Assembly (NCBI GenBank): GCA_030295235.1
Contig: AP026140.1
Coordinates: forward strand, 558,001 to 622,000
Source of the DNA: Fistulifera solaris
Lineage: Eukaryota
Direction: 5' to 3'
Length of the DNA: 64,000 nt
The notes beneath the pieces were generated by a model, which searched no databases, was not told the origin of the DNA, and saw only the letters and a program-made list of their open reading frames with translations. Shown in pieces: positions 20,570 through 56,554 of the stretch. Within the stretch, counting starts at the first letter, position 1. Each line of letters opens with the position of its first letter. A program made the position numbers and the translations under genes.

Positions 20570-22205
20570 ATGCTCAACAGAACGATAGTCTCTTCAGAGA
20601 CATCGCATTATGACGATATTCAGCAAATCGTTCAGTCGGAGAAATGGTTTACGGTGAGTGAAGCGGGCTTATGATGCACAAGTATGTTTTCTGTGGTTGT
20701 TTCATCCTTTGCTATTGCTATTACTCCATCGCTCACATTTTTTCTCTCGGATGATTCCAGCAACCGTTAGTTGTTCTCGTGTTGGGCGCCTCCGGTGATT
20801 TAGCCAAGAAAAAGACGTATCCGGCTTTATACGACTTGTGGCAGCAAAGTTTGCTACCCCGGCAGACTGTCATATGGGGCTTTGCACGGACCCGATGGAA
20901 CACCCAACAACTGCGCCATCATCTTCGTCGTTCCATGGCAGAACATGCCAGCATTGATCGTTTTCTGGATCTCTGTTTCTATCGACACGGCAAAGATTAC
21001 GGAGACAAATCAGCTATCTCCTCCATTTTTCAGTCTTGCACCATAATACACAATCTTCTAATCTATTTGGCAATACCACCACAAGTGTTTACCGATGCAA
21101 CGCTGGCTTTGAAACAGGTATTGTCACAGAACAGAATATCAGGTTTTGTTCGCATCGTTCTGGAGAAGCCCTTTGGTCACGATACAATCAGCTGTCGCAA
21201 GTTGTTGGACTCGCTGAAAGAACAGGAGTGGAAGGAGTCGGAACTGTACCGGATGGATCATTATCTGGGGAAGGAAATGGTTCAGAACATATTGATGCTC
21301 CGATACAACAACCCGTGGTTACAGCATATTTGGAATAAGGATGTCATACAGTCCGTTCACATACTATTCAAGGAACCCTTCGGTACCGAAGGACGAGGTG
21401 GATACTTTGATAGCATTGGTATCGTTCGAGACATTTGTCAGGTAAGTGCGATTACGGTAACACAGGTGGAGGTTTTGATATGAACTACAAACTAGAAGTC
21501 TCAGCCATGTACCCATCGCAGAATCATCTACTACAAATTCTGACTCTTATTGCGATGCAATTGCCGGAACAGCTGACTTCCGCGGCCATCCGTGATGCGA
21601 AAGTTAAAGTATTAAAAAGTATGCCAGTTCTACAACCCCGCGATTGCTTGCTGGGACAATACGAAGGATACAGCGACGACCCTACTATTGCAGATAAAGA
21701 CACCAGAACACCGACATATGTTTGCGTACGATCCTTCGTCAATGCACCTACATGGGAAGGTGTTCCGTTTGTTTTGGAAGCAGGGAAAGCCCTCAACGAA
21801 CGACTTTGCGAGGCCCGTCTCTTTTTTCGGGGCAATGGGACGAGTGCGTTGGTGTTACGATTGCAACCCCAGCCCGCTATTTTCCTTTCCACCAACATGA
21901 AACGGCCAGGCTTCTCCATGTCTCCGATTCATACGCACATGGGCATCGAATATGGAGAACATTGTATTGTTCCGGAAGCATATACTCGTCTCCTTTTAGA
22001 CGTTCTACGAGGAGAACAAGCTAGTTTCGTGCGCGATGATGAGCTTGTAGCTGCGTGGGAACTTTTTACACCATTGTTGAAATCAATCGAGATGCGGTCC
22101 CCGATCAAGTACCAGCCGGGAATGGACGGTCCGCACGAACGCGAAAACTTTCTGAGAAGTATGGAAGTAGGAAAGCCGTGGTCACCACCGCGGGCTTCCT
22201 TATAA
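20570..22205 (+). CDS. G6PD: Glucose-6-phosphate dehydrogenase
   Basis: GASGDLAKKK, EKPFG, YRMDHYLGKE, GRGGYFD and EAYTRLL motifs. Introns 20654-20760 and 21442-21521 restore the frame. Confidence 0.95.
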
Positions 22206-22869: not shown

Positions 22870-23820
22870 ATGAGTTGCGTGGACGCTTATTGTCGACGTC
22901 TTCGCATTGACGAACGTCCGATCGAACCGACAATCGAAACCTTGCAACTGTTGACGGAACGCCACTTGCAGTACATTCCGTTTGAGAATATTTCCATGCA
23001 TTTGGTGAGCGAAGATGACGCACCGGTCGTTCTTGAGCGGGAAAAATTGCTTCACAAAATTCTGACTCAACAAAGGGGCGGCTGTTGTTTGGAATTGAAT
23101 GGAGCCTATGCAATATTGTTGCAAGAACTTGGATATCGCGTTCAATTCATATCTTGCTGGGTGTATGCCGGAGCCGAACGAGGCCACGCCTCGAAAAAAG
23201 CTAAGTTTCGAGTGCAACAGACCCATTTCGTGTTGTTGGTCCAACCTCCGAACGACGATACCGTGAAATACTTGGTGGACGTAGGACTCGGTGAACCGCC
23301 CTGTCATCCGCTACCTTACATTTTGAATCAAGAAACGGTAACTCCGGACGGTATGCAAAGCCGAATTGTGGAAGATCCTCGTGGAAGTTGGAAGGATGGT
23401 TCGGGTAGAGAGAGGAAATGTCATATTTTGGAATGGTTCAAAAACAATGGTTGGGAACCACGTCTACAATGGGATGCTTGCGATGCTGTTTTCGACAAAG
23501 ACCATATCGACGTTTCCTCCAGTCTGCTTTGTTATCAATACGTCGTTCCGATTCTGACCCATCCGAAAAGCACATTTTCCCGAAAGCTCATCGTTTGCCT
23601 CCTCAATCGCAACGAGAAATTGTCTTTGAGCGGCTGGACACTAAAACGAACTTCTCCGAGATTTGTGAACTCGGTCATTACAACAGAAAGCGTGGAATCA
23701 CAGGATGAATTGAAGCAAATATTACGAGACGAATATGGAATGGATATTTCATGGCTTTCGGACTTGACCGTGAATCGCTCAAATGACCATCATGCTGGTA
23801 AAATTTGGGATCATTTGTGA
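22870..23820 (+). CDS. Arylamine N-acetyltransferase family protein
   Basis: IPFENI, RGGCCLELN (catalytic Cys), THFVL (His) and LVDVGLG (Asp). Confidence 0.92.
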   Translation: MSCVDAYCRRLRIDERPIEPTIETLQLLTERHLQYIPFENISMHLVSEDDAPVVLEREKLLHKILTQQRGGCCLELNGAYAILLQELGYRVQFISCWVYAGAERGHASKKAKFRVQQTHFVLLVQPPNDDTVKYLVDVGLGEPPCHPLPYILNQETVTPDGMQSRIVEDPRGSWKDGSGRERKCHILEWFKNNGWEPRLQWDACDAVFDKDHIDVSSSLLCYQYVVPILTHPKSTFSRKLIVCLLNRNEKLSLSGWTLKRTSPRFVNSVITTESVESQDELKQILRDEYGMDISWLSDLTVNRSNDHHAGKIWDHL

Positions 23821-24639
23821 AGTTAACAAGTCTTGAAACTCCAAATCTTAGGAAGTTGTAGGTCGGTTCAGTCGCGGAAAATTCGTTTGACGCAATCAGT
23901 CCGTTTCATCATGCAACGTACGGAACGCATTTTCGTCGGGAAGCTGCGTTAGGAGAGGAGTCATCAAGGCAAGTCTAAGACCGCAAAATAGGAAAACAAT
24001 CGATCCAGATAACGTTTAGACGCTTATGACAACCCTTGCCAAATCCAAATCGATTGACAAATGGAAATGCAGATACTGTCGAGCGAAAACCGCTAAAAAC
24101 ATTTTAGAAAAGAATTACTATACATTAAAGCTACATTGGAGACACATGCAAATCAAAATAAGCCATTTTGCTTTCTAGTTTAACAATCCTTCTATCGATT
24201 TTTTACGTCTTTTAAGTAAGCCCGTTCACACATCAATAGCATTCCAGAACATGAGTTTTGCTAATAAGAGTCAATCCTGCCCGGTCAAAATACTACCAAA
24301 GGTGTTCTGAGGAACAACGAGGAATAACCTAGTTATATCTCTTTGATGTGGTAGAAAGTTCCTTTGCAGCACATTGGCCGATAACTCCTGCCTGATCTAA
24401 GACATGTTGCAACATGGCATTGGCACCGGGCGCGGCATTTACAGTCCTAACAGCAACACTTGACAACCTAGCACTATAGAGAGTCACGCTGAATCATCCG
24501 GGGACGCCAAAACACCTATTCTTCTCCGAAAAAACTACTCCGTACTTCAAAAATATTGTTGTAAGCAAAAGACTCCTCTAGTTTTTCTTTTCAGATTATC
24601 AACGTATGATGTAGAAATTAATTTGTTATTTCTGCATCC

Positions 24640-24790
24640 GTTGCGATGGCCGAGTGGTAAGGAAACATTGTCGTTCGATCCGACATTCACATCGAAACTC
24701 TGCGCTTACATGTAAACGTTCTGTCAGGTCTAAGGCGCAAGATTAAGGCTCTTGTCTTCATTGGCGGGGGTTCAAATCCCCCTCGCAACA
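24640..24790 (+). tRNA. tRNA-Leu(AAG) with a 71-nt D-loop intervening sequence (24657-24727)
   Basis: After removing 24657-24727 the cloverleaf is complete: acceptor GTTGCGA/TCGCAAC, D-stem GCC/GGC, anticodon arm CAAGA-TTAAGGC-TCTTG, T arm GGGGG-TTCAAAT-CCCCC and discriminator A. A TTTT follows at 24796. Confidence 0.9.
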
Positions 24791-25343
24791 AATCCTTTTG
24801 ATTCTTTACATGCTGTTTGGTAGACTGCTGCTAACTTTACAAGTACTCTTTGACTAGGAAGACCCTACCGGTAGCAGTAGTCTAGATTTAGTTTATTCCA
24901 TTTTGGCCACGTGTGAAATTCGTAACTCTCGACTACTGGACTTGTGACACAGGAGGAGGACACAAAGCTCTATCGAATGTCCAAGGGTGAAAAATCGTTG
25001 CTTACTATTTGTCATCAATAGACACAATGAGTTACTATACAAAGCACAGTTTCTCTTTCGATTCGATGGAGTCCCAACATTGACTACCTGGTACATGGTC
25101 GAGGCGTTCGCTCATCAATGCAATCACGTGTCGGTGAAGGACGCGGCCATCGTTTGAATGGTCTAAATGAATGATTCGAAGATCTTTTGTTTGAGTGACG
25201 AGAAAGTTGAATGATAAAACATTTATGAAAATTTTGCTGACTATAAAGGCATTACGACTCGGTCACGGATTACCTTTTTGTTTCTTACGACTTGCAACCT
25301 TTGTTTTGACATCGGCTTTTCTCAAATCAGCAAGTGCCTTTTT

Positions 25344-28300
25344 TTATGGCTTCAATCGTCTGTTCAATGCTTCTACCCGTTGTTTTCGCGTCAAACCTTC
25401 AGTGTCAACACTCGCATACCCCGCTTCACTAGGAAAAACAAAACATAGCTTAATGGCATCCCATGATTTCAGCTTTGGATTTGCCAGTATCATCTCTAAT
25501 GCCTTTTGGTATCGCTGGTCGCCCGCTCTTCCATGTTTGCGACGCTGAGTCGGCCCGTTGGCTAACGCAGTAAGTCGAGTCGAATCATTAGCCGGAAGAG
25601 CTCGTTTTACGTTGGAGGTTATCAGGACTCTCGCTTGCTGGCTGTCCTTATCTACACCGCCATCAACTCTTGGGCGTTTACTGCGGTTTCGTCTTTGGTA
25701 CGTGTCGAGTGCAACATCCTTTTCACCTCCCATGTATGCATCGAAATCTTCTTCATTACTGCTGCTATCATCGTCGTCATCGTTGTTGTGATTTTTGTCA
25801 TCAATTCTACAAGTAATATGGTCATCACCGATTTTCCCCGGTAGCCCCTCGTAAACCATTGCTAGGAATGTCCGACGATCTTGTTCAGCACTAGCTTGTG
25901 TCCATTCACCCATTGCTTGCAATTCAAAGGGAACAAATTGTCTTAATGCGTACCTTCGAATGCTGGCAAAGATTTCGTCCTGCCCAATACAATAAGTTCG
26001 AGAGCCTGGGACGGAATCAATAAGATCATAAGCGTTGCCATATTTAATCAAACTGACGACATGGTCTCGAAATAAAAGCGTAGCCCCTGCGTTGTTGCGT
26101 GCCTGCGCGAGGATTTCCAAGACATCGCGTACACTGTCATCGTCGAAAATATTGGCTACCCTTGCTCCAATCAAGCTTTCGTCTCTTAACACTTGGCTGT
26201 TCACTAGTGAGTTTTCAAGGTTGGTATATTCCTCTGGGTCCGGTCGTAGGATTCTCAGGTATCTTATGCATCCAAAGTCGATATTGTGCTCGATTTTCCG
26301 ATTTTCTATTGTATAGCCAGAACAAATGTGGCACTTCACATTAAGTGCAGAAATTACTGCGCAGGCATTTGCAGTTTCGGGGTTCTGACCTTGGCGTGTA
26401 GAGAGCATGACGACACGTTCCCCTCGGTTGCCATCTTCATCGTTGCCGAAGTCGTTATACTCGTCGTGATCTTCGCCGTTTTCTGCGCTGCTGCCATTGT
26501 TTCCATTGTCGTTGACAACGTCCAAGTCGTTGTCATTTGGAAAATCATTTCTGATGTGTGCAATTTGGAGAGGTTCATTAGTATCATTCTTCTCCTCGTC
26601 GCTGCTATTACTACTGTCGTTAAAGCCGCCGTCATCTTCGTCGTCGTTGTCGTATTCATAGTTAGCGTCGTCGCATATTGTCCATCTTGTGTCGACAAAG
26701 CTTATCACTGGCAATGGCACGCCGTCCTCGATCCATTCTGGCGGCGTTTCATCAGCCGATCGCCCTCGGTGCCGCAAGGCATGTATCTGCCGATAGTTTG
26801 CATTGGCTTGATTCATTTGCGCTCGGAACATCCTAGCATGAAATGCTGCACTTTCTGAGCCGCCATATTGATAATAGCAGAAATATTTTGCCCTGATGCA
26901 CGCCCGCTTCTTTTCTTCATACGTACTATAGTCAGAGTATTTCACCTTCCAAAAAAGTCCCTTCTCGTGGTATACGCCAACCATCTCCCCGTCTTGTCGA
27001 AGCTCAACTGTCGTTGACTTGTTGTTTGCGTTTTGCAAAGCAGAAAAAATCCTCAGATTGCTTTTTCTCGTTATTTTCCCGATTAAGATCAATGTGATCG
27101 ACTTGTTCACGTCTCGTCAACAACTTGCCTGTAAAACACTCCATCGCCAATCGATAAAAAGTCCGAACTCTTCCACAGCACCAAGTAAGCATTTTAATGA
27201 ACGGAACTTTTGAATTTTCGCTGTGCAGCTTGTATGTAATAACGGTGATCTTGCAAAAGTGCCGGCTTCGATATCAAACAAATGGTCACCTTTTTCGTTT
27301 ATCAAGATCGGCAGTTTTGGATGTTTGTACCATCTTTGCTTACGAAGCCATTTTTGTTTGCGACGCAAGGCTCGGCTGCTCAAGCACTGTTTATACTTGA
27401 TCTTTAAATCTCTCGTTGACTCTCGAAGGCTCGATTCGTATCTATCGCAATATGTGAGTGCATTTCTTCCACTTCATACTCAGATTCTGTTGCGACTTAC
27501 CCAGGTGTTCGGTTGGCAAGGAGCATGTTCTCATGTTGCGTTATCCATTCCAGAAGGTCCAAGTTGTTGTTACACCGATCTCCCTTGTGATGGACTACAT
27601 GATTGGGACTTGGCCGAGGTCCATGAAAAGTTGCAGCAATCAACGCCGCGACGGAACATTTGAACCGGGTATTACCCTTACTACAGTCCTCATCAGAAAG
27701 ATTGACATACCGATAGTTCTCAGGGTTTGGAGCTGCCAACATTAGTTTATAGGATCGCACCAACCAACTGTCTTTCCTCGGTTGTTTCCCACGCTTCCAA
27801 GATCTACGACCGATGACTTCGCCTATTCCCTTGTTGAGATAGTCCTTAGCTGTAGCCGTTGTCACCCATTGACGGTGACATGCCAAAACAAACCCGGCCC
27901 GGCTTACGAAGTACACGACTGGAAGATGAGGAAGGTAGTTCGGTGCCATATAAACTTGTGTTCCATCCGCCATGCTGCCAAAGAAGCCTCTCGTTTGACC
28001 TTGCGGCATCGGAACAAACCCTGAATTCTGCGCAACACGGAGGCATTCCTCGTACGCTAATACAGTTTTTTTGGTAGCGAGCATAGCTTGAATGAAGCGC
28101 GGAACTTTGCCCAAGGAGCCCTCCTGAAACAACTTATTAGGAACTCCAATCGGAAGATAGTATCCGTCATCGTCTGAATGGTAGGCGGTACTTTCTTGAT
28201 TTGAAAGTCGTATTAGTTCCCAAAAATCTTGCATTACTGCTGGATCCGCGTATTGAAGAGGGACGCCATCGAAACGAACGCCTTGTGGACGGAGGGTTCG

Positions 28301-28501
28301 ATCTCCATTGAGCTCGAACTCTCTAGGGTCTTGATAGGGTATCGATACAACTGGATCAAGCCTAGCACCAGTGTTTCCATGAATTGAAGCCCAGAACGGT
28401 GGTGTATTGCTGAAAATAGCCAAGGCTATCCTTTCGAATCTCATGGGAGAACTTGATCTCGCAGACAACTGAACACCAGAAATGTTTTCGTTTTCTTCAG
28501 C
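25344..28501 (-). CDS. Multidomain HNH-HNH-AP2 endonuclease-like protein with an acidic linker and a putative papain-like domain (spliced, frameshifted)
   Basis: HNH1 VVHHKGDRCNNNLDLLEW; intron 27500-27442 joins in frame; HNH2 VDHIDLNRENN..NLR; AP2-like GVY...W.V...KYF..QYG..A; NACAVI/DHVVSL/LIDS. 5' exon(s) unresolved. Confidence 0.7.
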
Positions 28502-29627: not shown

Positions 29628-32600
29628 TAACACTAACACAATCCTAAATATTTATTCCTAATTTTCCTGAAATGCGGATGCTTTTTCGACATTTGACTGA
29701 ATTTTCCACTGTTTTTTCTCTTTTGGCACAAATATTTTTTTCTTTCTTTCAGAAACTCCGATTTCTGAATCACTGTACCACAGTTAGTAGTAAAGCGACA
29801 AACCTGCGCCGGTTTCCCAGTGCGGAGGATTGCGCTGTGGCGCTATCTCTCGGATTTCGCAATAGCATGCTCACCGATCGAACCAACGAGAGACTCAAAC
29901 GAGATCGGATAAACCCACAAATTTCTGAGTACGGTCTCTTCCATTTCTTTTGCAGCTTTCTTGCAAGCTGGCGTGAGGCCGCAACAGCTTGTTTACCCAT
30001 GAGCCCGTCGACAGAAAAAACAAGAGGCGTGAAATCACGGCGGCGGTCCATACAGGGCTTACCGTAAAGTCTTCGTTTCTCGAGTTCTTGGGAAGCAAGA
30101 ACGTTCATTGGCTCGCGATTCTTGTGCGAAGGCGTCAGTGTCGGTAACGCTGGACGTCAAAGATGGTTGTTTTCCGATCGCTCCAGAAACCGTAAGTAGA
30201 AATGTCGCCGAAGTTCTTGTTCTTTTGTGCATTCCGATTGTCAGTGCTGTAAGTGTGGATTGTCGGTTCGCTATGCATTACTGCTTTTGGGCCATGCACA
30301 AAGAGACATGAATTCGTTTTTGACATCGTCGTGTCGAAGGATGACAAGACCGCCCGTGTTTGCATGTTTGAGCGTGTTCTACCGAGAAAGGTTTGTTGCA
30401 TCCGTCACACTTCTGGGGAAGTGCTTGGATAGGTAGACCTGCACGAATCGCGAAGACTGTCTCGGAACTCATCTTTAGACAAATCAGTGTCTGTGAGAGT
30501 TTTCGGTCTGACGGAAAGCCAAATTCCAGACGATTTTGCTCGCAAAAGACGTCGCTTTTCTTGTTTGCCTTTTTCATCGTCTCCTTTCGCGAGCGCAAAT
30601 ATCTTTCAGGGTCTGGAGTTCACTAGCGTGGCGACTTGCGGAAGCCGCAGCTCTTCGATTTTTGCTCGTTCTTGATGTTGTCGGAAGTTTAAATTAAGGT
30701 TCTCGAGCAAACTGCCTGAAATGAGCTTCGTGACTTTTTCCGAAGTTGAGAAATTGTGACGACATGTCTCCACTGGGTTCCAGACTCCGATACCAGCAGC
30801 TTTGGTTCCTAAAGCCAGAATTTTGCGCAATTCTCCGGTGACTGGCTCTTTTTGTCCAAGGAGCGGGAAGAAAATTGTTTTGAATTGCGGATTCTAATGG
30901 TTCGAATAGCGGTGCAATGCGTGGAATGACTCGCTGGATATATTGCCATTCCATTTGAAGAGAGTGACGAAAGCCGGAATAAGCGGACTGGGGATATTTC
31001 TTGGCAACTTCAGAGAGCAGATTGACTGTGCGTGTCCAATTTTTGATTTTTTCTTTGACGTATTCATCTCTTGCAGCTGCTGAACCAATAAAGCCACCAA
31101 GGTATCTGTGTCCGCCGAACATATTCAAATTCATATTTGGACAGAATTTCGTTGCACTTTTCTTCATTGCTCTGTCGACAGACAACAACACTTTGCTTGG
31201 TTCTGGAAAGTAGCCTCGAGCGGGACCGTACTGCATTAGGATTTCCATTGCTTTAGAAATGTCAGAGGATTTTCCAGCCAGAGCAACATCATCCGCATAG
31301 AAGGGCTGAACAATGTCTTTGACATTCTCTCGGATTTTCTCTGCAATAGGAGTAAGAGTTAAACCATAAAGGATCATGCTTAGAGGATCGCCTTGGGCTA
31401 TTCCTTCCCTGCTTAGGATCTCTTCACAGAAGTCAAAGTCTCGTACAAATAGAGTAGATGCATGTCTGTAGCAATTGAAAACAAATCTTGCTCCAGCTGG
31501 CCAAAGGTGCCGAACCGTCCAGAGCATTGAAAATCTGCTGAGTTCATTAAATGCGTTTCTTGCGTCAATTAGGAGCACTGCTTCGGGATCATTTTCGTCA
31601 TAATTTTCTTTTCGGTTGAGATCATCCTCATAGTCCAGCAGTCTTTCAGTGATTTCTTTTTGGACCTCTTCTAGGTTAGATTCGAGATCTTGGGCTTCTT
31701 CATCAGTGAATCCCATTTCAAGAAGAATGGTCTTTTCGAGAAGTGCTTCTTGGTTGGGTGACGCCAGGAATTTTAGCATTGCGTGAATGGATCCCTCGGT
31801 GCCTGAGGAGAGTCCCGTACAAAGGTTAAGGTTACCACATTCTTCTGCTGCCGAGTCACCCTTGAGAATAGCAACCGTTTTGGCCATTAAGCGACGGAAG
31901 ATTTCTTCAATTGCAATAGGGGCGAACTCCGGGCTTTTGTCTAAACCAATAAGTCTTGCATTTAGTAGGGCCCAAATTGCAGCATATGGAGGGCTGTGAT
32001 TTGCAAGCCATTCTGTCCAATGAGCCAACTCGCATCTCAGGCGAAAAGAAACTTTCCCGTGACCTAGGAGCCAATTCTTTAGAGTGACCGCGTCTGTTCC
32101 ACTTGGTCCTCCACTTCCTTTGAGTTTGGTGGCAGAGGTTGCGATTGTTTCTGCGGAGACTTCGTAAAGGAACTGCATCTGGAAGAAAATCATACTGTTC
32201 AAAGGCAAGTCGTCCTTCTGTTGTGTTGAGATCAGGGGTGCGCAACTCTGGATGTTTATCACGTAGAACCTCAATAACTTTGCGATTTGTTTTGGGGTCA
32301 ATATCTTCCGGATCGAGGACTCCTTTTGACTCGGTAGAGGTGAGTAATTGCATTGCTTCTTTGGTTCGTCCGGGATTTCAACATGGCGTCAAAGCGTCGT
32401 GCCCTTTCTTCAAGGGTAAAAGCACGCTTTGATGGCTTATCCCGCTTTGCTTTTTCTAGAACTGTATCGTGATAAAGAGCATGCTGATTTCCCGATAACC
32501 AAAGATCCAATCGATCATTCAGTCTTCTGTTGATGTCTTTTTGTCGTTTGATATGTGGGGTGGACTCAAGAATGACCATGATGAAGACCAAGACTCGCTC

Positions 32601-33722
32601 GAAATTTGCTGTTCTGTGCTTTCGGACGTTTTGTAGCTCTTCAGTTAGAATGGAAAGAAACCGCTTTGAAGTGCCGTTTCGACGGAGGGTGTAAGCTCGT
32701 GACGGTGTTGCAATTAGGGATTTGTACCAGTCTTGCCATTTTTTGTCAACTTCTTCGGGCAGTCCTCCTGTGAGGTGTGTTCCATCATTATCGTGGATGT
32801 GGTCGCCGAAAACTTGACGGATAGTTTGATGTGATTCCGTGTCAACAAATCCCGGAGGTCAGCATCAGGTTCCGGTGTAGAAAGTTGGTTGAATGTTGAG
32901 TTAGTGTGTCGGTCATACATTTCTTCTCCGTCTTCGCCCTCGTCACTGTCATCACTTCGGAAGTCAATAGGAGTGCCGTCGTGAACTTCAACTTGAATGG
33001 TGTCATTATGTCCTGTTTCCTGGTATTCCTGGTTTTGTACTGGTTGAGGTTGTGAGTCGATGACTTCGCGATTACTGTTTTGGATTTGGATCGTCTCATT
33101 TCCCGTGTCATTGTTAGCAGGGTTAGGGTTCGTGTCCTGAGGTCCAAGTCCAACCGGTTGGCAAAATTCCACCATGAGTTCTCTTCCGTTGATAGTGTGA
33201 GTGGTTTGAAGACGATCTTTGTTATGGCAGTCGGAACATTGGCAATTTGTACAGTAAATACCATTTTGCTTGCAGCGGCATCTATTTGTTTTGCAGTGGG
33301 CCTTTGGAGTACATTTGCAGCATCGGGATGCGTTGGCGTTTGGTCCTAAATGAATTTTTGACTTAGTACTCTGCTTCCTAGTGTTCCGCGTTCTGGTACC
33401 TTTTACTGGCTGGTGAGTAGTACTCGAATATGTCAGTTGATCAGGGTCGACTAGATGGATTGATGTTTCGCCAAAACTCACGGATCGCCGATTCGGCGAT
33501 GCAGCGTTTGAACCATGGTTGTCCATGCTGAAAAGCGATTGATCGGTTGATCTGATGAGAGATTGAATGCGAAAAATGAATTCAGCGTCGTCGAATTGTC
33601 CAGAATAGATGACAGGGATTCGAGGGGGGCTTCAGGAATAGTGATTTTAACCTTAACCCGACTGATTTTCCTATGAAGCAAAGCTTGAAATGGTCCTGAG
33701 TTTTATATTGATTCTCTCGGGG
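29628..33722 (-). mobile_element. Non-LTR retrotransposon with restriction-like endonuclease, CRE-like; single ORF ~33526-29770 broken by many frameshifts
   Basis: N-terminal Cys cluster CCKC..C..C.C..C..C.C..C.N. RT motifs LIGLDK.PGVRP, LIDARNAFN, QGDPLSM, YADD and YLGG. CCHC knuckle CDGC..H..C. RLE GDI..FW..IFDV..K..Y..FTPLVFSVDG. Boundaries approximate. Confidence 0.9.
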
Positions 33723-33783
33723 CTAAGGCGCAAGATTAAGGCTCTTGTCTTCATTGGCGGGGGTTCAAATCCCCCTCGCAACA
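33723..33783 (+). pseudogene. 5'-truncated tRNA-Leu(AAG) (D-loop to discriminator)
   Basis: 61 nt identical to 24730-24790, followed by its own TTTT. The 5' acceptor strand and A box are replaced by the retroelement 5' end. Confidence 0.92.
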
Positions 33784-33834
33784 TTCTTTTGATGCCGCCG
33801 ATGGTTATGCTGCCGTTGGATCTTTTTTCCGTCA

Positions 33835-36560: not shown

Positions 36561-37966
36561 ATGAAGTTGTCGATCGCCTTTTCTTTCCTCCTAGCTTCGA
36601 GCACAGCATTCCATTTGCAAAGTCCCTCGACGAGGGCGTCGGCCCTGTATGCTGGCGTCGAACGTAACGCCAACTTTGCCAAGTTGGCCGGTGGATACTT
36701 GTTTCCGGAAATCGCGCGCCGACGCACCAGTTATCTCGAAGAAAACCCGGAAATGAAAGATCGAGTCATTTCGTTGGGTATCGGTGACACCACGCAGCCG
36801 ATTCCTCCTCACATATTGAATGGATTGGTCGAAGGTGCCAAGCAGTTGGGAACCAAGGAAGGATATTCGGGATACGGAGCCGAACAAGGAATGCAATCGC
36901 TTCGTGCCAAAATTGCCGAAAAGCTTTACAACGGCATCATTTCGGCCGACGAAGTCTTTGTAAGTGATGGTGCCAAGCCCGATATCATGCGATTGCAACA
37001 AATGTTCGGACCGAAAGTTGTCAGCGCTGTTCAGGATCCCAGTTATCCTGTTTATGTGGATACGTCGGTCATCATGGGTCAGACCGGTGAACAAGACACG
37101 AACTCGAAGCAATATGACAAAGTTATTTACATGCCTTGCACTCCGGAGAACGGATTCTTTCCGGACTACTCCAGTGTGCCCCGCGCTGATATTGTGTATT
37201 TGTGTTCGCCAAAGTAAGTGCTGCACGCTAAAAATGATGTCTAAGACACTTCAGTTCCGCTCAATGCGTTTTTTCTCTCCCTTACAGCAACCCTACAGGG
37301 GCTGCAGCGACCAAGGAGCAATTGGAAGGCTTGGTCAAGCTTTGCAAGGAGCGTGGATCGATCCTGGTGTTTGATGCGGCCTACGCCCCTTTCATCCGCT
37401 CGGAAGGAGTTCCCAAATCCATCTTCGAAATTGAGGGTGCTCGTGAAGTGGCTATCGAAGTCAACTCCTTCAGTAAGTATGCTGGTTTCACGGGTGTTCG
37501 TCTGGGCTGGACTGTCATTCCTGGTGATTTGAAGTTCAAAGACGGAAGTCTCGTTCGCAACGACTTCAACCGTATTATGACAACTACTTTCAACGGAGCT
37601 TCCAACATTGTACAAGCGGGAGGTCTAGCTTGCTTGGACGACGAAGGATTGGCCGAAATAGATGCTTTGATTGACTATTACCTGAAAAACGCCAATATTC
37701 TTCGAGAAACTTTCGAAAAGATCGGGTACGATGTTTATGGTGGAGTCGATGCTCCGTATGTGTTTGTGAAACTTCCCGCTTCAATGGGCGGCAGCTGGGA
37801 TGCGTTTCAAACAATTCTCGAAAAGACCCAAGTAGTGACCATTCCCGGCGCTGGATTCGGTCCTGGTGGAGAAGGCTTTTTGCGATTGTCTGCGTTCGCT
37901 CCTCGTGAAGCCGTAGTAGAAGCTTGCAAACGTCTCGAGGAAGCTCTTGCCCCCGTGAGCGCATAA
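36561..37966 (+). CDS. dapL: LL-diaminopimelate aminotransferase, plastid-targeted
   Basis: GYLFPEI, SLGIGDTTQP, SDGAK, CSPN|NPTG and SFSKYAGFTGVRLGW motifs. Intron 37214-37287. STA-FHL bipartite presequence. Confidence 0.96.
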
Positions 37967-51178: not shown

Positions 51179-51530
51179 AGTAGCGTATGTTTATCCTATT
51201 GTGAAGAATGAACTTGCTGCTATCTCGGCAAATTTTCTAGGTATGGCTAGGAAGAACGGGATTGTAAAAAATCGTGTCCCTAGAGTTGAGCCGGACGTTC
51301 GCACGTTTTGCCACGTGGGCATACGACAAAGTTCCGCTCCTTGTTTCCGGCACTCAAAGTCCGGACGTGTGCAAGAGAATTATTATTCGACGGATCGAAG
51401 ATCGGACGTCGGCGGAAAACGGCCGCTCCTTTTTTTCTTCGACACACACAATTTTTTCCTTCTTGATTACGATTTCAATTCATTTCATTTTTTTGACACT
51501 GTTGCTATATATATACATCTCCACAACAAC

Positions 51531-52751
51531 ATGAAATCGTCATATAGAACGTTCGTTTCGAGCGTTGGAAGATCACGCCGCCGAAAATCATCTGTGGCAG
51601 TGTTGGAGGCTCCCAACGAATTTCCTCGATTGCAAGCACTGCGTGAGCAGCTGCAGCACGATCCGCCCATGATACATCGCTCCAAGCAACGACTGATAAC
51701 GACACCACAACCACTTACAGATGCTGTACAACTCCGTGAATGGATCGATACATTGCCTCTTCCTTCGACCATCTTACAAGATACGTACGGACGGTTTCAC
51801 AACTATTTACGCCTCTCATTGGTCGAACGATGCAATTTGCGTTGCACGTACTGCATGCCACCCGAAGGAATTCCCTTGTCGGACAATTTACTGACCTCCG
51901 AAGAAGTCTTAAGATTGGCGGAACATTTTGTGTCACGGGGTGTCAATAAATTTCGCCTCACGGGTGGGGAACCCACGTTACGCAAGGATTTGACCGAAAT
52001 CATACAGGGACTTCACGCCCTGCGACCGAAACAAATCGGCATTACGACGAATGGTGTCATTCTGACGCGTAAATTGGATGAGTTCATTGACGCGGGTTTG
52101 ACCAGTATTAATATTTCCTTGGATACCCTGCAAGCCGACAAGTTTGAACAATTGACCCGTCGACCGTACTTTTCCAAAGTGTGGGAATCCATAACAGCGG
52201 CGCATCAAAGAGCCTCACAACAGGACCATCTTACTGTCAAAGTGAATTGTGTCGTGATGCGCGGCGTCAATGACGAGGAAGTTCCCGATTTTATTCGACT
52301 TACGGAACAATTCCCGCACTTGCAGATGCGGTTCATTGAATACATGCCCTTTTCGAGCAATGGCTGGGATTGGAGCAAATGCGTTCCGTATCAAGAGTTA
52401 CTGACGGACGATTTGACTCCAGTGCCCAGTTCGGATCCCAGTGATACGACGAAATGGTATCAAACACCGGAAGGTGCCACGGTAGGCTTTATTACCAGCA
52501 TGTCGGAACATTTTTGTGGTTCCTGCAATCGCATTCGACTCACGGCAGATGGTCAACTCAAAGTGTGTCTGTTTGATGGTCGGGAAGTCAATTTGAAGAA
52601 CATCTTGCGTTTACCCGACGTGACCGAGCAGGATCTCGATAAAGTCATCTATCATGCTTTGCAACACAAACAAAAGCAATTGGGTGGTCATCCGGATCCA
52701 GCTTCCATCAAAGTGGATAAAAATCGACCCATGACGCTGATTGGTGGATAA
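51531..52751 (+). CDS. CNX2: GTP 3',8-cyclase (MoaA/CNX2/MOCS1A), molybdenum cofactor biosynthesis
   Basis: YLRLSLVERCNLRCTYCMP (radical SAM), RLTGGEP, FCGSCNRIRLTADG and C-terminal RPMTLIGG. Confidence 0.97.
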   Translation: MKSSYRTFVSSVGRSRRRKSSVAVLEAPNEFPRLQALREQLQHDPPMIHRSKQRLITTPQPLTDAVQLREWIDTLPLPSTILQDTYGRFHNYLRLSLVERCNLRCTYCMPPEGIPLSDNLLTSEEVLRLAEHFVSRGVNKFRLTGGEPTLRKDLTEIIQGLHALRPKQIGITTNGVILTRKLDEFIDAGLTSINISLDTLQADKFEQLTRRPYFSKVWESITAAHQRASQQDHLTVKVNCVVMRGVNDEEVPDFIRLTEQFPHLQMRFIEYMPFSSNGWDWSKCVPYQELLTDDLTPVPSSDPSDTTKWYQTPEGATVGFITSMSEHFCGSCNRIRLTADGQLKVCLFDGREVNLKNILRLPDVTEQDLDKVIYHALQHKQKQLGGHPDPASIKVDKNRPMTLIGG

Positions 52752-53738: not shown

Positions 53739-56554
53739 ATGCCTCCTCAAGATAGAACCGTTTTGCTCGAAGACAACAGCATCAGTTCGAAAGAACCGAG
53801 TTGTGAAGAATTGTATGGGCCTTATCCGAGTGTAAGTGGATCGGCATCTCCATTTTCTTGTGTCGATGTTCCCTCGTTTGGTGCAAATTCCGTTCTTTCG
53901 ACTTGCTTGCGGCTGCAAGCATGTAACTGCTCGTCTATATTCACAACTGACCTTTCCTTTTCTCCTTCTAAATCACTTTTTAGGCCATCCCCATTCCCTT
54001 TTTGACATTGCGAAATGAAGGCCGCGAAGGTGATATTCCGGATGCCGAAACAATTGCGAAAGCCAAAACGATGTTCGATATGCCTCCCGATCATCGTGAT
54101 GTCGGTTCTCCCGACGAATGGGTCCCACGGGATGGTCGACTGGTGCGTTTGACCGGCAAACATCCCTTTAACGTAGAACCGCCGGTCGCGGTGTTGGAAC
54201 AGTACCGTTTCATTACACCATCCTCGCTGCATTATGTTCGCAATCACGGTGCCTGCCCGAAGTTGACGTGGGAAGACCACACGGTGGTCATCGGAGGCCC
54301 GTTGGTGGCACGTCCGCGAGAATTCAACATGGACGAGATTGCCGCCCTGCCACCCCGCGAATTGCCCGTGACGCTCGTGTGCGCGGGGAACCGCCGGAGG
54401 GAACAAAACATGATTCGACAGACGATTGGATTCAATTGGGGCAATTCGGGTGTTTCCACCAACGTCTGGAAGGGTGTTCTGCTACGAGACTTGCTGTTGG
54501 AATGTGGTGTGTCGGATCGGAACATGGCCGGCAAGCACGTGGAGTTTATTGGAGTAGAAGATCTACCCAACAAGGTCGGACCCGGTCCTTTTCCCGACGA
54601 GCCCTGGGGTAAATTGGTCAAGTACGGTACTTCGGTGCCCTTGGCTCGTGCGATGAATCCGGCGTATGATATTATTGTGGCGTACGAAGCGAATGGCGAG
54701 CGTTTGCAACCGGATCATGGCTTTCCCGTGCGTCTCATTATTCCAGGCTACATTGGAGGTCGTATGATTAAGTGGCTCAAAGAAATCAACGTGATTGAAC
54801 ATGAAACCAAGAATCACTATCACTACCACGACAATCGCATTCTCCCGCCGCACATCACCGCGGAAGAGTCACTGGCGGGAAACTGGTGGTACAAGCCCGA
54901 GTACATTTTCAATGAGCTCAACATCAACTCTTCTATGGCCAAGCCGGGCCACAACGAAACCTTGTCGATCGCGAAGAACATGGGCAAGTCGTATGATATT
55001 GTGGGGTACGCGTACACGGGAGGAGGTCGTGCCATTACCCGAGTGGAAGTGAGTCTAAATGGGGGTGTCAACTGGCATTTGTCAACGCTGGACCGCAAAG
55101 AAAAGCCGACCGAGTACGGTATGTACTGGTGCTGGGTGTGGTGGACGTTTCAAATTCAAGTGGCCGATTTGGTCGGAGTTAAGGAGATTTGGTGCCGCGC
55201 GTGGGATGAATCCAACAACCCGCAACCCACCGAGCCTACGTGGAACTTGATGGGCATGGGGAACAACCAAGTCTTCCGGATTAAAGTTCACTTGGATAAG
55301 ACAGCTAGCGGTGAGCACGTCTTTCGGTTCGAACATCCCACTCAGCCTGGACAACAAACGGGAGGCTGGATGACGACTTTGTCCGGGAAACCCGAGAGCG
55401 CTGGTTTCGGACGTCTTCTCGATCATGTGGGCGGCGAAGAAAAGACCAGTGCCCCTGCTCCCCCGCCGAATGATACTGGAAAGAAGTTCACTCTCGCCGA
55501 GGTCCAGAAGCACAACACCGAGCACGATGCGTGGATCATTGTGAAGGACCGCGTCTATGACTGCACGGAATACTTGGAGCTACACCCCGGTGGTATCGAA
55601 TCGATCATTTTGAATGCTGGTGCCGACGCGACGGAGGACTTTGTGGCTATTCATAGTATCAAAGCGACGAAGATGTTGGAGAAGTACTACATTGGTGACT
55701 TAGATACTAGTACTGTCCCTGCTGCCAAGCCAGTCGAAGAGGAATGTTTATACGACGAGAAAGGAAACAAACTGGCGTTGAACCCGAAGAAGAAGACTCC
55801 CTTCCTACTACAGAACAAAATTGTGCTTTCACGAGATTCGTACATGCTCGACTTTGCCCTCCCAACACCACAGCATGTATTGGGCTTGCCCACGGGCAAG
55901 CATCTATTTTTGTCTGCCAAGATCAACGGCGAGACTGTCATGCGTCGCTACACCCCCATCAGCTCGAATTACGATGTTGGTTGCGTCAAGTTTGTTATCA
56001 AGGCGTACCGTCCTTGCGAGCGTTTCCCTGAGGGCGGCAAGATGAGCCAGTATCTTGACACTCTGAATATTGGCGATTACTTGGATATTCGAGGACCTGT
56101 TGGAGAGTTTGAATACATCGCGAACGGTAAATTTTTCATTGAAGGCAAGGAATGCTTTGCTTCCAAGTTCAACATGGTCGCCGGTGGCACTGGCATTACT
56201 CCCGTCATGCAAGTTGCCGCCGAAATTTTACGCCATCCGGAAGATGAGACGCAGATCTCATTGATTTTTGCGTGCCGCGAGGAAGGTGATCTGCTGATGC
56301 GCAGCACTTTGGACGAATGGGCGACGAACTTCCCGAACAAGTTCCGAGTTCATTACATTTTGAGCGATTCTTGGCCCTCGGACTGGAAATACAGCACTGG
56401 TTTTGTCGACAAGGCTCTTTTTGAAGAATGTTTCTATGAGTCGGGCGAGGATGTCTACAATTTGATGTGCGGGCCGCCCATCATGGTCGACAAGGGATGC
56501 ATCCCCAACTTTGTCAGCCTTGGACATGATCGCTCTCGCTTATTCGCCTTTTAG
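53739..56554 (+). CDS. NR: Assimilatory NAD(P)H nitrate reductase
   Basis: Moco domain (RLTGKHPFN, YVRNHG, CAGNRR), cytochrome b5 (HPGG) and FAD/NAD domains (RRYTP, AGGTGITP, CGPP). Intron 53832-53983 is in frame. Confidence 0.98.

Follow-up and report, generated by a model that had tools for sequence, protein, structure and literature searches.

The tRNA-Leu(AAG) gene at positions 24640–24790 (+) of the window, by which we mean the whole 64-kb stretch of DNA analysed, is interrupted in its D-loop by 71 nt, and the question that it raises is whether this interruption is an intron of the kind that the spliceosome removes from mRNA. A review of eukaryotic nuclear introns divides them, in its available text, into unrelated spliceosomal, tRNA-endonuclease and IRE1 types, and puts the spliceosomal ones in Pol II transcripts (PMC12530127). 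The hosts of mRNA-type introns named in the available part of a second review are the U6, U2, U5, U1 and rRNA genes, with tRNA genes not among them there (PMC5855946). No spliceosomal intron in a tRNA gene was reported in the accessible portions of a mostly open literature, taken as main texts without supplements, that included PMC12530127, PMC4090602, PMC8450103, PMC3978253, PMC5855946, PMC13015402, PMC5832005 and PMC3879985. The account that we favour, and which on the balance of the sequence evidence is probably, if narrowly, correct, is that the gene is split between G18 and G19 of the D-loop by a 71-nt mRNA-type (U2 spliceosomal) intron.

Anatomy of the interrupted gene

The locus gave the sole Rfam match in the window, to RF00005 at 24640–24790 (+), complete over model positions 1–71 and scoring 45.1 bits against a gathering threshold of 29, with a D-loop insertion of 74 nt left unaligned. 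ARAGORN made no tRNA call on the unspliced window; when the 71 nt were removed in silico, it called an 80-nt tRNA-Leu(AAG) with every stem paired and a class II variable arm. The original prediction, that the cloverleaf is intact but for an insert at 24657–24727, was borne out in both letters and coordinates. The features of the gene are as follows.

24640–24656 (+): exon 1, comprising the acceptor 5′ strand, U8, G9, the D-stem 5′ strand and the D-loop through G18; last letters GAGTG (Rfam alignment, ARAGORN, sequence)
24647–24657 (+): A box, TGGCCGAGTGG (sequence match)
24657–24727 (+): insert, 71 nt, between G18 and G19 in the D-loop, starting GTAAGG and ending GTCAG (sequence, script)
24728–24790 (+): exon 2, first letters GTCTAAGG, comprising the remaining D-loop and D-stem, the anticodon arm, the long variable arm, the T-arm and the acceptor 3′ strand (Rfam, ARAGORN)
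24745–24747 (+): anticodon AAG, in exon 2
24766–24782 (+): T-arm with B box, in exon 2 (sequence match)
24790 (+): discriminator A, the end of exon 2
24796–24799 (+): T4 run, candidate RNA polymerase III terminator, 6 nt past the discriminator (sequence)

The pattern GGCCGAGTG-N45-75-GTCTAAGGCG matched once in the window, compared with no match in 100 shuffles. The type 2 layout of Pol III genes is present as sequence matches to an A box, a B box and a downstream T-run, and the A box spans exon 1 and the first G of the insert, just as had been claimed. Transcripts of Pol III end at T runs, and the run at 24796–24799 is one T longer in the contig from run X1 (see below). A coding or antisense gene at the locus was considered and rejected, the longest stop-free frame being 83 codons and nothing sensible running across both exons. 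A protein-atlas comparison with nitrate reductase matched clusters labelled Eukaryota and no narrower group, whereas the style of the introns and the genes present may be read as fungus-like.

Splice-type signals of the insert

Judged by its letters, the insert is built like a U2-type intron. The candidate 5′ splice site, GTAAGG (24657–24662), is a GT with RAGT-like sequence; in the candidate branch site, CTTAC (24705–24709), A24708 sits 19 nt from the insert end, and the third letter is T, where the fungal consensus CTRAY has a purine. The candidate 3′ splice site, CAG (24725–24727), holds the first AG past the branch candidate, there being none between 24709 and 24726. The GTAAGG start, the CTTAC and the GTCAG end all stand where the original prediction placed them. 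Its further claim, that cutting at GT/AG exactly restores the D-loop, holds in so far as ARAGORN finds a perfect cloverleaf, but GT..AG is one of four cut frames (GG..CA, GT..AG, TA..GG and AA..GT) that, by script, yield the same product.

Continuity of Pfam profiles anchors two mRNA introns in the window, which allow a comparison: one in the G6PD gene (21442–21521, 80 nt) and one in an aminotransferase gene (37214–37287, 74 nt), both with GTAAGT...CAG or ACAG ends. The insert, at 71 nt against 74 and 80 nt in this sample of two, resembles them in length and in its GTAAG donor, as proposed; the accompanying claim, that CTNAC branch sites are typical of the mRNA introns of this genome, was borne out only loosely, because a clean CTNAC at the usual distance is absent from both anchored introns. 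A blastn search found no second copy of the insert in the 64-kb window, and in run X1, which is DNA-like in having a flat depth of 14–15 across intergenic DNA, a contig passes unbroken through the insert at a single-copy depth of 14.1. In the window and the X1 contig, then, the insert is single-copy, unlike an introner-like element or a member of a dispersed repeat family, which the original prediction had named as evidence against a spliceosomal intron. The absence of TTTT from the insert, considered as a sign of constraint by Pol III, proved uninformative, since 57–69% of random 71-nt windows also lack it.

Two properties of the gene count against splicing by the spliceosome. The 5′ exon is just 17 nt plus leader, and Pol III transcripts have neither a cap nor Pol II-coupled recruitment of the spliceosome.

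The insert also contains pieces that resemble parts of a tRNA.

24669–24685 (+): T-arm-like hairpin, TGTCG TTCGATC CGACA, within the insert; role putative
24673–24681 (+): B-box-like core, GTTCGATCC, in the T-arm-like hairpin
24692–24698 (+): acceptor-like heptamer, TCGAAAC, one substitution away from the acceptor 3′ strand TCGCAAC

T-arm-like hairpins number three on both strands of the window, namely the two genuine T-arms and that of the insert, against a shuffle mean of 0.27, whereas the B-box core alone is not enriched (10 matches, with 13 expected). An Rfam E-value scan of 24560–24860 gave no second tRNA-like match using the insert hairpin, and the minimum-free-energy fold of the precursor was not unusually stable compared with shuffles (z −1.04).

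Inserts at the same site in metagenome loci

A scan for TGGCCGAGYG-N45-75-GTCTAAGGCGC, in which GT and AG were not required, returned 18 metagenome loci; its range is inserts of 45–75 nt at one tRNA-Leu site, so that shorter or longer inserts, other sites and other tRNAs lie outside it. Of these, six loci (five distinct ones) belong to tRNA-Leu genes that are interrupted at the site. The five inserts are as follows.

L006 (identical to L015): gtaagc..ctaac..aag
L010: gtgagc..ctaac..cag
L018: gttagt..ctaat..tag
L016: gtaaga..aag, with no branch motif, a T5 run and D-loop repeats at the insert ends
L017: not GT-AG, with a 14-nt direct repeat and D-loop repeats at the insert ends

Thus GT...AG is found in four of the five distinct inserts, three of which also carry CTAAC or CTAAT, compared with 0/27 control rows from three collections (23 chance matches and four rows, L005, L014, L021 and L025, with a partial 5′ copy plus an intact tRNA). 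Together with that of the window gene, the inserts span 49–71 nt, and the window insert has weaker splice signals than L006, L010 and L018: its position +6 is G, and CTTAC stands in place of CTAAC. L006 (with L015), L010, L016 and L018 are independent tRNA-Leu genes with unrelated GT...AG inserts at the site used in the window gene. L016 and L017 show that not every insert there is a clean intron. We found no convincing ORF in the 400-nt flanks of the metagenome loci.

A canonical 37/38 intron is additionally present in L006, L010, L017 and L018. The strongest case among the analogues is L018, which has a second insert, of 57 nt, in the T-arm (GTAAGT..CTAAT..CAG, the CTAAT lying 12 nt from the end), for which a single frame is possible; ARAGORN calls a perfect tRNA-Leu(CAA) with a normal 32-nt 37/38 intron only once both GT-AG inserts have been removed. 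The exons of L006 and L010 differ at four positions, which make up two compensatory pairs (3:70 and 28:42), while their inserts and flanks barely align; the two genes thus show structural constraint on the tRNA. At its gathering threshold the Rfam tRNA model misses the multi-intron genes of the scan.

Other copies of the gene

A 5′-truncated sister copy that has no exon 1 (copy B) lies about 9 kb from the gene, with retroelement-like ORFs between the two.

33712–33793 (+): copy B, 5′-truncated sister copy (blastn, 84 nt, 92.9% identity)

The truncated copy and the intervening ORFs show that the region holds gene debris. Positions 33723–33783 of copy B are identical to 24730–24790, and the preceding 11 nt, TTCTCTCGGGG, match the intron tail and exon start, TTCTGTCAGGT, at 8/11 positions, with AG changed to GG; the trailers have CTTTTGAT in common and differ at several positions. 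Because copy B retains the last 9 nt of the intron, the intron would predate the duplication that gave rise to it. A search for a second exon 1, allowing up to three mismatches, returned just two chance-like matches inside or near ORFs.

Run X1 indicates further copies. Positions 24730–24790, the 3′ 61 nt of exon 2, are present there at about three times the single-copy depth and are identical in the remaining X1 copies, and the contig graph indicates three copies of exon 2. One is that of the gene itself, another is copy B, whose sequence equals the loose end of X1 record 3, and the last agrees with the gene from G24727 onward but not at A24726, which fits an intronless GAGTG|GTCT. The contig depths and graph of this one run thus suggest that there is probably an intronless copy in the same genome, and that the cell probably does not depend on the interrupted one. 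In X3, an aquatic metagenome run, a contig has identical exons joined as predicted (...GTTGCGATGGCCGAGT + G + GTCTAAGG...), without the intron.

Alternative explanations

The main rival to a spliceosomal-type intron is that the gene is dead, an insertion or partial tandem duplication having broken one of several tRNA-Leu(AAG) copies, so that the insert stays in, or its excision is of no consequence, and the tRNA comes from intact copies. The GT would then come from the GGT of the D-loop itself, and the AG and CTTAC would be due to chance. The T-arm-like and acceptor-like pieces of the insert are what a partial tRNA duplication would give, copy B is truncated near the same point of the D-loop, and the probable intronless copy in X1 could supply the tRNA; in the scans, moreover, a partial 5′ copy plus an intact tRNA is a common arrangement, and L017 has its 14-nt direct repeat without GT-AG. 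Set against this, the 80 nt of exons show no decay although the flanks common to copy B have diverged (at 3/11 positions, plus several in the trailer), and they are identical to those of the intronless X3 copy. The force of exon identity is lessened by copy B, surely a dead tRNA gene, in which 61 nt of exon 2 are nevertheless unchanged, so that identity may reflect gene conversion rather than selection. In a single comparison, the copy with both exons has kept its AG whereas copy B, with no exon 1, has lost it. A dead gene would, furthermore, have to account for a GT, a motif like a branch site 19 nt from the end and the next AG downstream all being in place, for the recurrence of GT...AG at the same site in independent genes but not in the control rows, for the two such inserts and perfect cloverleaf of L018, and for the compensatory pairs between L006 and L010. 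We regard a dead gene as unlikely, but as an explanation to be taken seriously.

It is very improbable that the locus is kept for another role, as a TFIIIC/Pol III binding site with an effect on chromatin or on genes nearby, or as the origin of a tRNA-like small RNA spanning 24640–24699: an A box and two B-box-like elements do lie within 140 nt, and the ends of 24640–24699 can pair, but this segment folds no better than shuffles (z −0.58), into a structure that lacks the T-arm-like hairpin, and the placement of GT, branch and AG and the perfect exon 2 would go unexplained.

The remaining explanation, a non-canonical tRNA intron cut by the splicing endonuclease at a relaxed bulge–helix–bulge (BHB) and joined by tRNA ligase, as in Cyanidioschyzon merolae and nucleomorphs, draws on the few eukaryotes in which D-arm introns of a protein endonuclease are known, as described in the available part of PMC4090602, and on the ambiguity of the cut site over four frames; it is the least probable of all, and we give it hardly any weight. 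A BHB, which the original prediction had named as evidence against spliceosomal removal, was found in none of the four frames: across these frames and two BHB topologies the best central helix paired at 3/4 positions, with flanks at 0/3 and 2/3, and the minimum-free-energy fold has no such motif. Nor was one found in any product-equivalent frame of L006, L010, L016, L018 or the T-arm insert of L018. The insert lies at 18/19 rather than at the canonical 37/38, and an insert in the D-loop breaks the elbow that serves as the ruler of the eukaryotic enzyme. Since three of the analogues also have a normal 37/38 intron, their D-loop insert would be of a different kind.

Proposed processing and origin of the putative intron

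If the insert is a spliceosomal intron, RNA polymerase III would initiate a few bases upstream of the gene and stop at the T run 24796–24799, using a promoter made up of the A box, completed by the first G of the intron, and the B box of the T-arm, possibly aided by the B-box-like element of the intron. A B-box match reportedly lies inside the Schizosaccharomyces U6 intron. The spliceosome would pair with GUAAGG, branch at A24708 in CUUAC and join G24656 to G24728 after CAG, restoring GAGUG|GUCUAAGG; ordinary end-processing, CCA addition and A34-to-I34 editing would follow. The whole course, namely that the gene is transcribed and by this polymerase, that the spliceosome removes the intron and that the resulting tRNA is used, we infer from the sequence.

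Reverse splicing, proposed earlier as the source of the intron, found no support. The T-arm-like hairpin and acceptor-like heptamer of the insert, and the D-loop repeats at the insert ends of L016 and L017, point instead to an event at the D-loop, either partial duplication or repair, and this is probably how the intron arose.

Comparison with known introns

The closest parallels are the fungal U6 genes, which are transcribed by Pol III and can be interrupted by as many as four introns whose splice signals are canonical and whose remaining sequence is unconserved, according to the available text of a review (Tani and Ohshima 1989; Canzler et al. 2016; PMC5855946). As in the present case, the host is a small non-coding Pol III gene, the splice signals are canonical and there may be several introns per gene, as in L018. 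A tRNA, however, is no part of the spliceosome, so the case for reverse splicing at the active site, as made for U6, does not carry over, and splicing is here predicted from sequence. Ascomycete rRNA genes with spliceosomal introns (Bhattacharya et al. 2000, as cited in the available part of PMC5855946) are likewise fungal hosts not transcribed by Pol II, but the polymerase and the RNA are different ones.

The tRNA introns of C. merolae and nucleomorphs resemble the present insert in lying in the D-arm of nuclear-type tRNAs, sometimes beside a 37/38 intron; the accessible portions of PMC4090602 and PMC9602550 describe them as dependent on a BHB, with nucleomorph insertions of 3–24 nt, whereas the window insert and its analogues are without a BHB and measure 49–71 nt, and the window insert has GT...AG and a candidate branch motif. 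Canonical 37/38 introns, removed by TSEN, likewise split a tRNA gene, and only their excision yields a working tRNA, but here the position is 18/19 and the signals are other ones.

Implications

Taken more widely, these observations raise the possibility that some fungi and other microbial eukaryotes have true spliceosomal introns in the D-loop and T-arm of their tRNAs, sometimes beside a 37/38 intron. The spliceosome would then add a fourth way in which tRNAs lose introns, one acting on Pol III transcripts. The birthplace of these introns would be the D-loop motif G|GTCTAAG|G, already similar to both splice sites, where duplication or repair would create them, and in the window gene the B-box-bearing T-arm relic would help TFIIIC to span the gene at its greater length, in the manner of the fission-yeast U6 intron. 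This wider proposal we advance tentatively, with slightly less than even confidence.

Because ARAGORN misses the window gene and the Rfam gathering threshold misses multi-intron ones, the tRNA sets of some genomes may be under-counted, and such genes may be classed as pseudogenes. The repeats at the insert ends offer a concrete model of intron birth. If the window gene is read correctly, a spliceosomal intron in a tRNA gene crosses the boundary between intron classes, and part of the tRNA supply would hang on the spliceosome; the gene would then be a natural case for studying how spliceosomes are drawn to an uncapped Pol III transcript whose first exon is 17 nt long.

The split tRNA-Leu(AAG) gene

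Re-reading of the sequence confirmed the letters and coordinates originally predicted for a tRNA-Leu(AAG) gene split in its D-loop, between G18 and G19, the parts of which are:

24640–24656, forward strand, exon 1
24657–24727, forward strand, insert of 71 nt
24728–24790, forward strand, exon 2

The RF00005-type tRNA model of Rfam spans 24640–24790 on the forward strand at full model length (45.1 bits against a gathering score of 29), leaves 74 nt unaligned as an insertion in the D-loop and has no other match in the whole 64-kb window. ARAGORN called no tRNA on the unmodified window; once 24657–24727 had been deleted by script, it returned an 80-nt tRNA-Leu(AAG) with acceptor, D-, anticodon and T-stems all paired and a class II variable arm, which bears out the predicted restoration of a normal D-loop by removal at GT/AG. 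The leading G of the insert was also correctly predicted to preserve the A box, TGGCCGAGTGG, of which it supplies the last base. The pair of exon motifs at a spacing of 45–75 nt occurs once in the window and in none of 100 shuffles, and a T4 run lies 6 nt past the discriminator. Because the stop-free frames across the locus do not exceed 83 codons, we regard it as intergenic; its neighbours are an arylamine N-acetyltransferase gene (22870–23820) and, on the other side, an ORF on the opposite strand. In the sequencing run X1, contigs of which match the locus, three homopolymer runs (at 24528, 24795 and 25274) are each longer by a single base than in the window, among them the T run after the gene, which is T5 rather than the T4 of the window; either the strains differ or one of the two sequences contains homopolymer errors.

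Splice-type signals of the insert

The insert opens with G and GT, the sequence after it opens with GT, and four placements of the cut (GG..CA, GT..AG, TA..GG and AA..GT) therefore give an identical product. As read from the sequence, GT-AG is among the admissible frames; it puts the ends of the insert at G24657 and G24727, with GTAAGG at the start, a CTTAC motif whose A lies 19 nt before the 3′ end, and a terminal CAG that is the first AG downstream of CTTAC. For comparison, mRNA introns (n = 2) were anchored by continuity of a Pfam profile over adjacent ORFs and by reading of the junction, with boundaries taken from the sequence:

21442–21521, G6PD intron, 80 nt, GTAAGT...CAG; the G6PD_C profile ends at position 50 (nt 21441) and restarts at position 50 near nt 21519
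37214–37287, class I/II aminotransferase intron, 74 nt, GTAAGT...ACAG

The original prediction held that the insert matches the mRNA introns of this genome. Its length and ends do appear to fit these two; the CTNAC branch bears the claim out only loosely, since in neither anchored intron does a clean CTNAC stand at the distance usual for a branch site, and the branch motif of the genome is therefore loose. Motif-guided candidates that join ORFs show CTGAC, CTTAC and CTCAC, which is circular as evidence, the motif having been used in their selection. Elsewhere in the window, a molybdenum-cofactor synthesis gene (radical SAM plus Mob_synth_C; 51201–52751, forward strand) adjoins a full-length assimilatory nitrate reductase (54002–56554, forward strand), directly upstream of whose ORF lies a candidate GTAAGT intron of 152 nt (53832–53983).

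Other copies of the tRNA

X1 behaves as DNA, and its depth is flat at 14–15 over 1.6 kb of intergenic sequence. One contig, at a depth of 14.1, covers 23800 through the insert to 24756, so the insert is single-copy in X1; short-word blastn found no second copy of it in the 64-kb window, and on these two grounds a dispersed repeat was rejected as its source. X1 contigs break within exon 2, where 24730–24790 has a depth of 43.7 (about three copies) and 24727–24759 one of 34.8 (about two copies), and the 3′ end of the exon leads into three different trailers. These contig ends point to three copies of exon 2: the split gene, one copy diverging at 24729 and upstream, and one with G24727 and without A24726, the pattern expected of an intronless GAGTG/GTCT copy. 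An intact tRNA-Leu(AAG) copy is thus probably present in the same genome. In X3, an aquatic metagenome, a 193-nt contig carries an identical exon 1 fused directly to exon 2 at the predicted junction.

Three further features accompany the split gene in the window:

33712–33793, forward strand, copy B, a sister copy with no exon 1, of which 33723–33783 (61 nt) is identical to 24730–24790
30694–32301, reverse strand, reverse-transcriptase-like ORF (weak match), between the two tRNA copies
27497–28468, reverse strand, HNH-like ORF (HNH_3 endonuclease domain), between the two tRNA copies

Neither Rfam nor ARAGORN reported copy B, and a search of the window for a second exon 1 with up to three mismatches gave nothing beyond chance-like matches at 1667 and 16212. 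The 11 nt ahead of the 61 nt of copy B, TTCTCTCGGGG, agree at 8/11 with TTCTGTCAGGT, which is GT preceded by the final 9 nt of the insert. The trailers of the two copies have CTTTTGAT in common. On this alignment copy B is a 5′-truncated duplicate beginning within the tail of the insert, which, because copy B starts there, would predate the duplication. The AG is retained in the copy with both exons and changed to GG in copy B. Since copy B, a dead fragment, nevertheless retains 61 nt of exon 2 unaltered, identity of the exons may stem from gene conversion. There is tRNA debris in this region, and the HNH_3 and reverse-transcriptase-like ORFs suggest mobile-element remains in the interval.

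A T-arm-like hairpin lies inside the insert itself:

24669–24685, forward strand, TGTCG TTCGATC CGACA

Its 5-bp stem, G-C closed, carries a 7-nt loop with the sequence of a T-loop, and it holds a B-box-like core; 7 nt past it, TCGAAAC differs from the acceptor 3′ strand at one position (the element ends at 24698). A search of both window strands for this T-arm architecture gave three matches, one in the T-arm of each tRNA copy and the third in the insert, against a mean of 0.27 in block shuffles. The B-box-like core motif by itself is not rare in the window, and the fold of 24640–24699 is no better than that of shuffles. The hairpin may be tRNA sequence captured at the birth of the insert; alternatively, it may serve as an internal promoter element, in which case it would parallel the fission-yeast U6 intron, within which Frendewey et al. 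reportedly found a B-box match in 1990.

Inserts in other tRNA-Leu genes

Metagenomes were scanned for TGGCCGAGYG, 45–75 unspecified bases and GTCTAAGGCGC, GT and AG not being demanded. Ten of the 18 loci obtained are GC-rich chance matches with no tRNA downstream, two are intact intronless tRNAs with a partial 5′ copy ahead, and in six a tRNA-Leu gene is interrupted by an insert at the same D-loop site; two of these six, L006 and L015, share an identical 881 nt, which leaves five distinct sequences. The same pattern gave 13 loci in prokaryote genomes and two in a viral collection, none of them an insert-bearing tRNA; GT...AG is found in none of the 27 rows of the three scans other than the insert-bearing tRNA-Leu genes. 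The partial-copy arrangement recurs in eukaryote-like and bacterial contigs: L005 and L014 (metagenome) and L021 and L025 (bacterial genomes) each have an intact tRNA with a partial copy of its own 5′ end (TGGCCGAGYG...) 50–70 nt upstream.

Inserts in metagenome tRNA-Leu genes (branch-motif distances from insert end)
L006/L015; Leu-AAG (read by eye of the analyst); 60 nt; gtaagc...ctaac (16 nt)...aag
L010; Leu-AAG; 52 nt; gtgagc...ctaac (12 nt)...cag
L018, D-loop; Leu-CAA; 54 nt; gttagt...ctaat (11 nt)...tag
L018, T-arm (550–606, after C61); Leu-CAA; 57 nt; GTAAGT...CTAAT (12 nt)...CAG
L016; Leu-CAG; 49 nt; gtaaga...aag; T5 run; GGTCTAAG repeated at insert end
L017 (411–469); Leu-AAG; 59 nt; 14-nt direct repeat GAGCGGTCTAAGGC at both sides; not GT-AG in anchored frame

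With the inserts deleted, ARAGORN called a tRNA-Leu in all five distinct genes, adding a normal anticodon-loop intron in L006, L010 and L017 (in L017 of 12 nt and canonical). A regular expression found no branch motif in the L016 insert, and that of L017 looks more like a duplication or insertion footprint than a GT-AG intron. By its sequence, L018 is the strongest case of putative mRNA-type introns in a tRNA gene. Removal of its D-loop insert alone gave no ARAGORN call; removal of both GT-AG inserts gave a perfect tRNA-Leu(CAA) of 82 nt with a 32-nt intron at 37/38. A single frame of the T-arm insert restores the T-stem, and no bulge–helix–bulge (BHB) fits there, so that this one gene would carry three introns of two kinds.

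Between L006 and L010 the exons show four differences, which make up two compensatory pairs, 3:70 and 28:42, each T-A versus C-G; outside the splice signals, the D-loop inserts, the anticodon-loop introns and the flanking sequences of the two loci are barely alignable. This would reflect either an old shared intron with the tRNA under structural selection or independent gains at the same site by two isodecoders. L010 and L015 may be paralogues in one organism, as their sample series have neighbouring numbers.

Origin and status of the insert

Intron gain by reverse splicing had been suggested. Birth by duplication or repair at G/GTCTAAG/G, a motif that itself opens with GT and closes with AG, appears to suit the data better, because the ends of several inserts are D-loop-like (GTAAGG in the window versus GTCTAAGG; L016 and L017), the interior is tRNA-like and arrangements of a partial copy plus a tRNA exist.

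For mRNA-type introns in tRNA genes as a class, the sequence evidence is good. At the window locus the splice signals, the intact tRNA, the lack of a BHB and the analogues in other tRNA-Leu genes incline us, with reserve, to read the insert as a spliceosomal-type intron removed to yield tRNA-Leu(AAG). The case is weaker here than for the class because the splice signals are less strong, the same genome probably also contains an intronless copy, a dead sister copy lies nearby and the interior of the insert resembles tRNA debris. A dead gene we consider a serious though less probable account of 24640–24790; other uses of the locus take what probability remains. Removal of the insert by the tRNA endonuclease is very improbable and was rejected, since pair counts over a 4-bp central helix and two flanking helices reached at best 3/4 with flanks of 0/3 and 2/3 in four frames and two topologies, and the free-energy fold of the precursor, of unremarkable stability (z −1.04), contains no BHB.

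The section of a 2018 U6 review on intron hosts lists spliceosomal introns in U6, U2, U5 and U1 snRNA and rRNA genes, tRNA being absent from that section, and describes up to four introns in a single U6 gene of fungi, the signals being canonical and the remaining sequence unconserved (PMC5855946). A 2014 review reports non-canonical eukaryotic tRNA introns from nucleomorphs and Cyanidioschyzon and says that insertions in the D- or T-arm elsewhere ‘are supposed to be pseudogenes’ (PMC4090602); in a 2025 paper the three types of nuclear intron are described as ‘completely unrelated’ (PMC12530127). In full-text literature largely outside the subscription journals, we found no published spliceosomal intron in a tRNA gene. 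U6 genes, which are Pol III-transcribed, and rRNA genes are known non-coding hosts of such introns; the host here would be a tRNA. If our reading is true, the known class of spliceosomal introns in non-coding RNA genes would be extended to tRNA.
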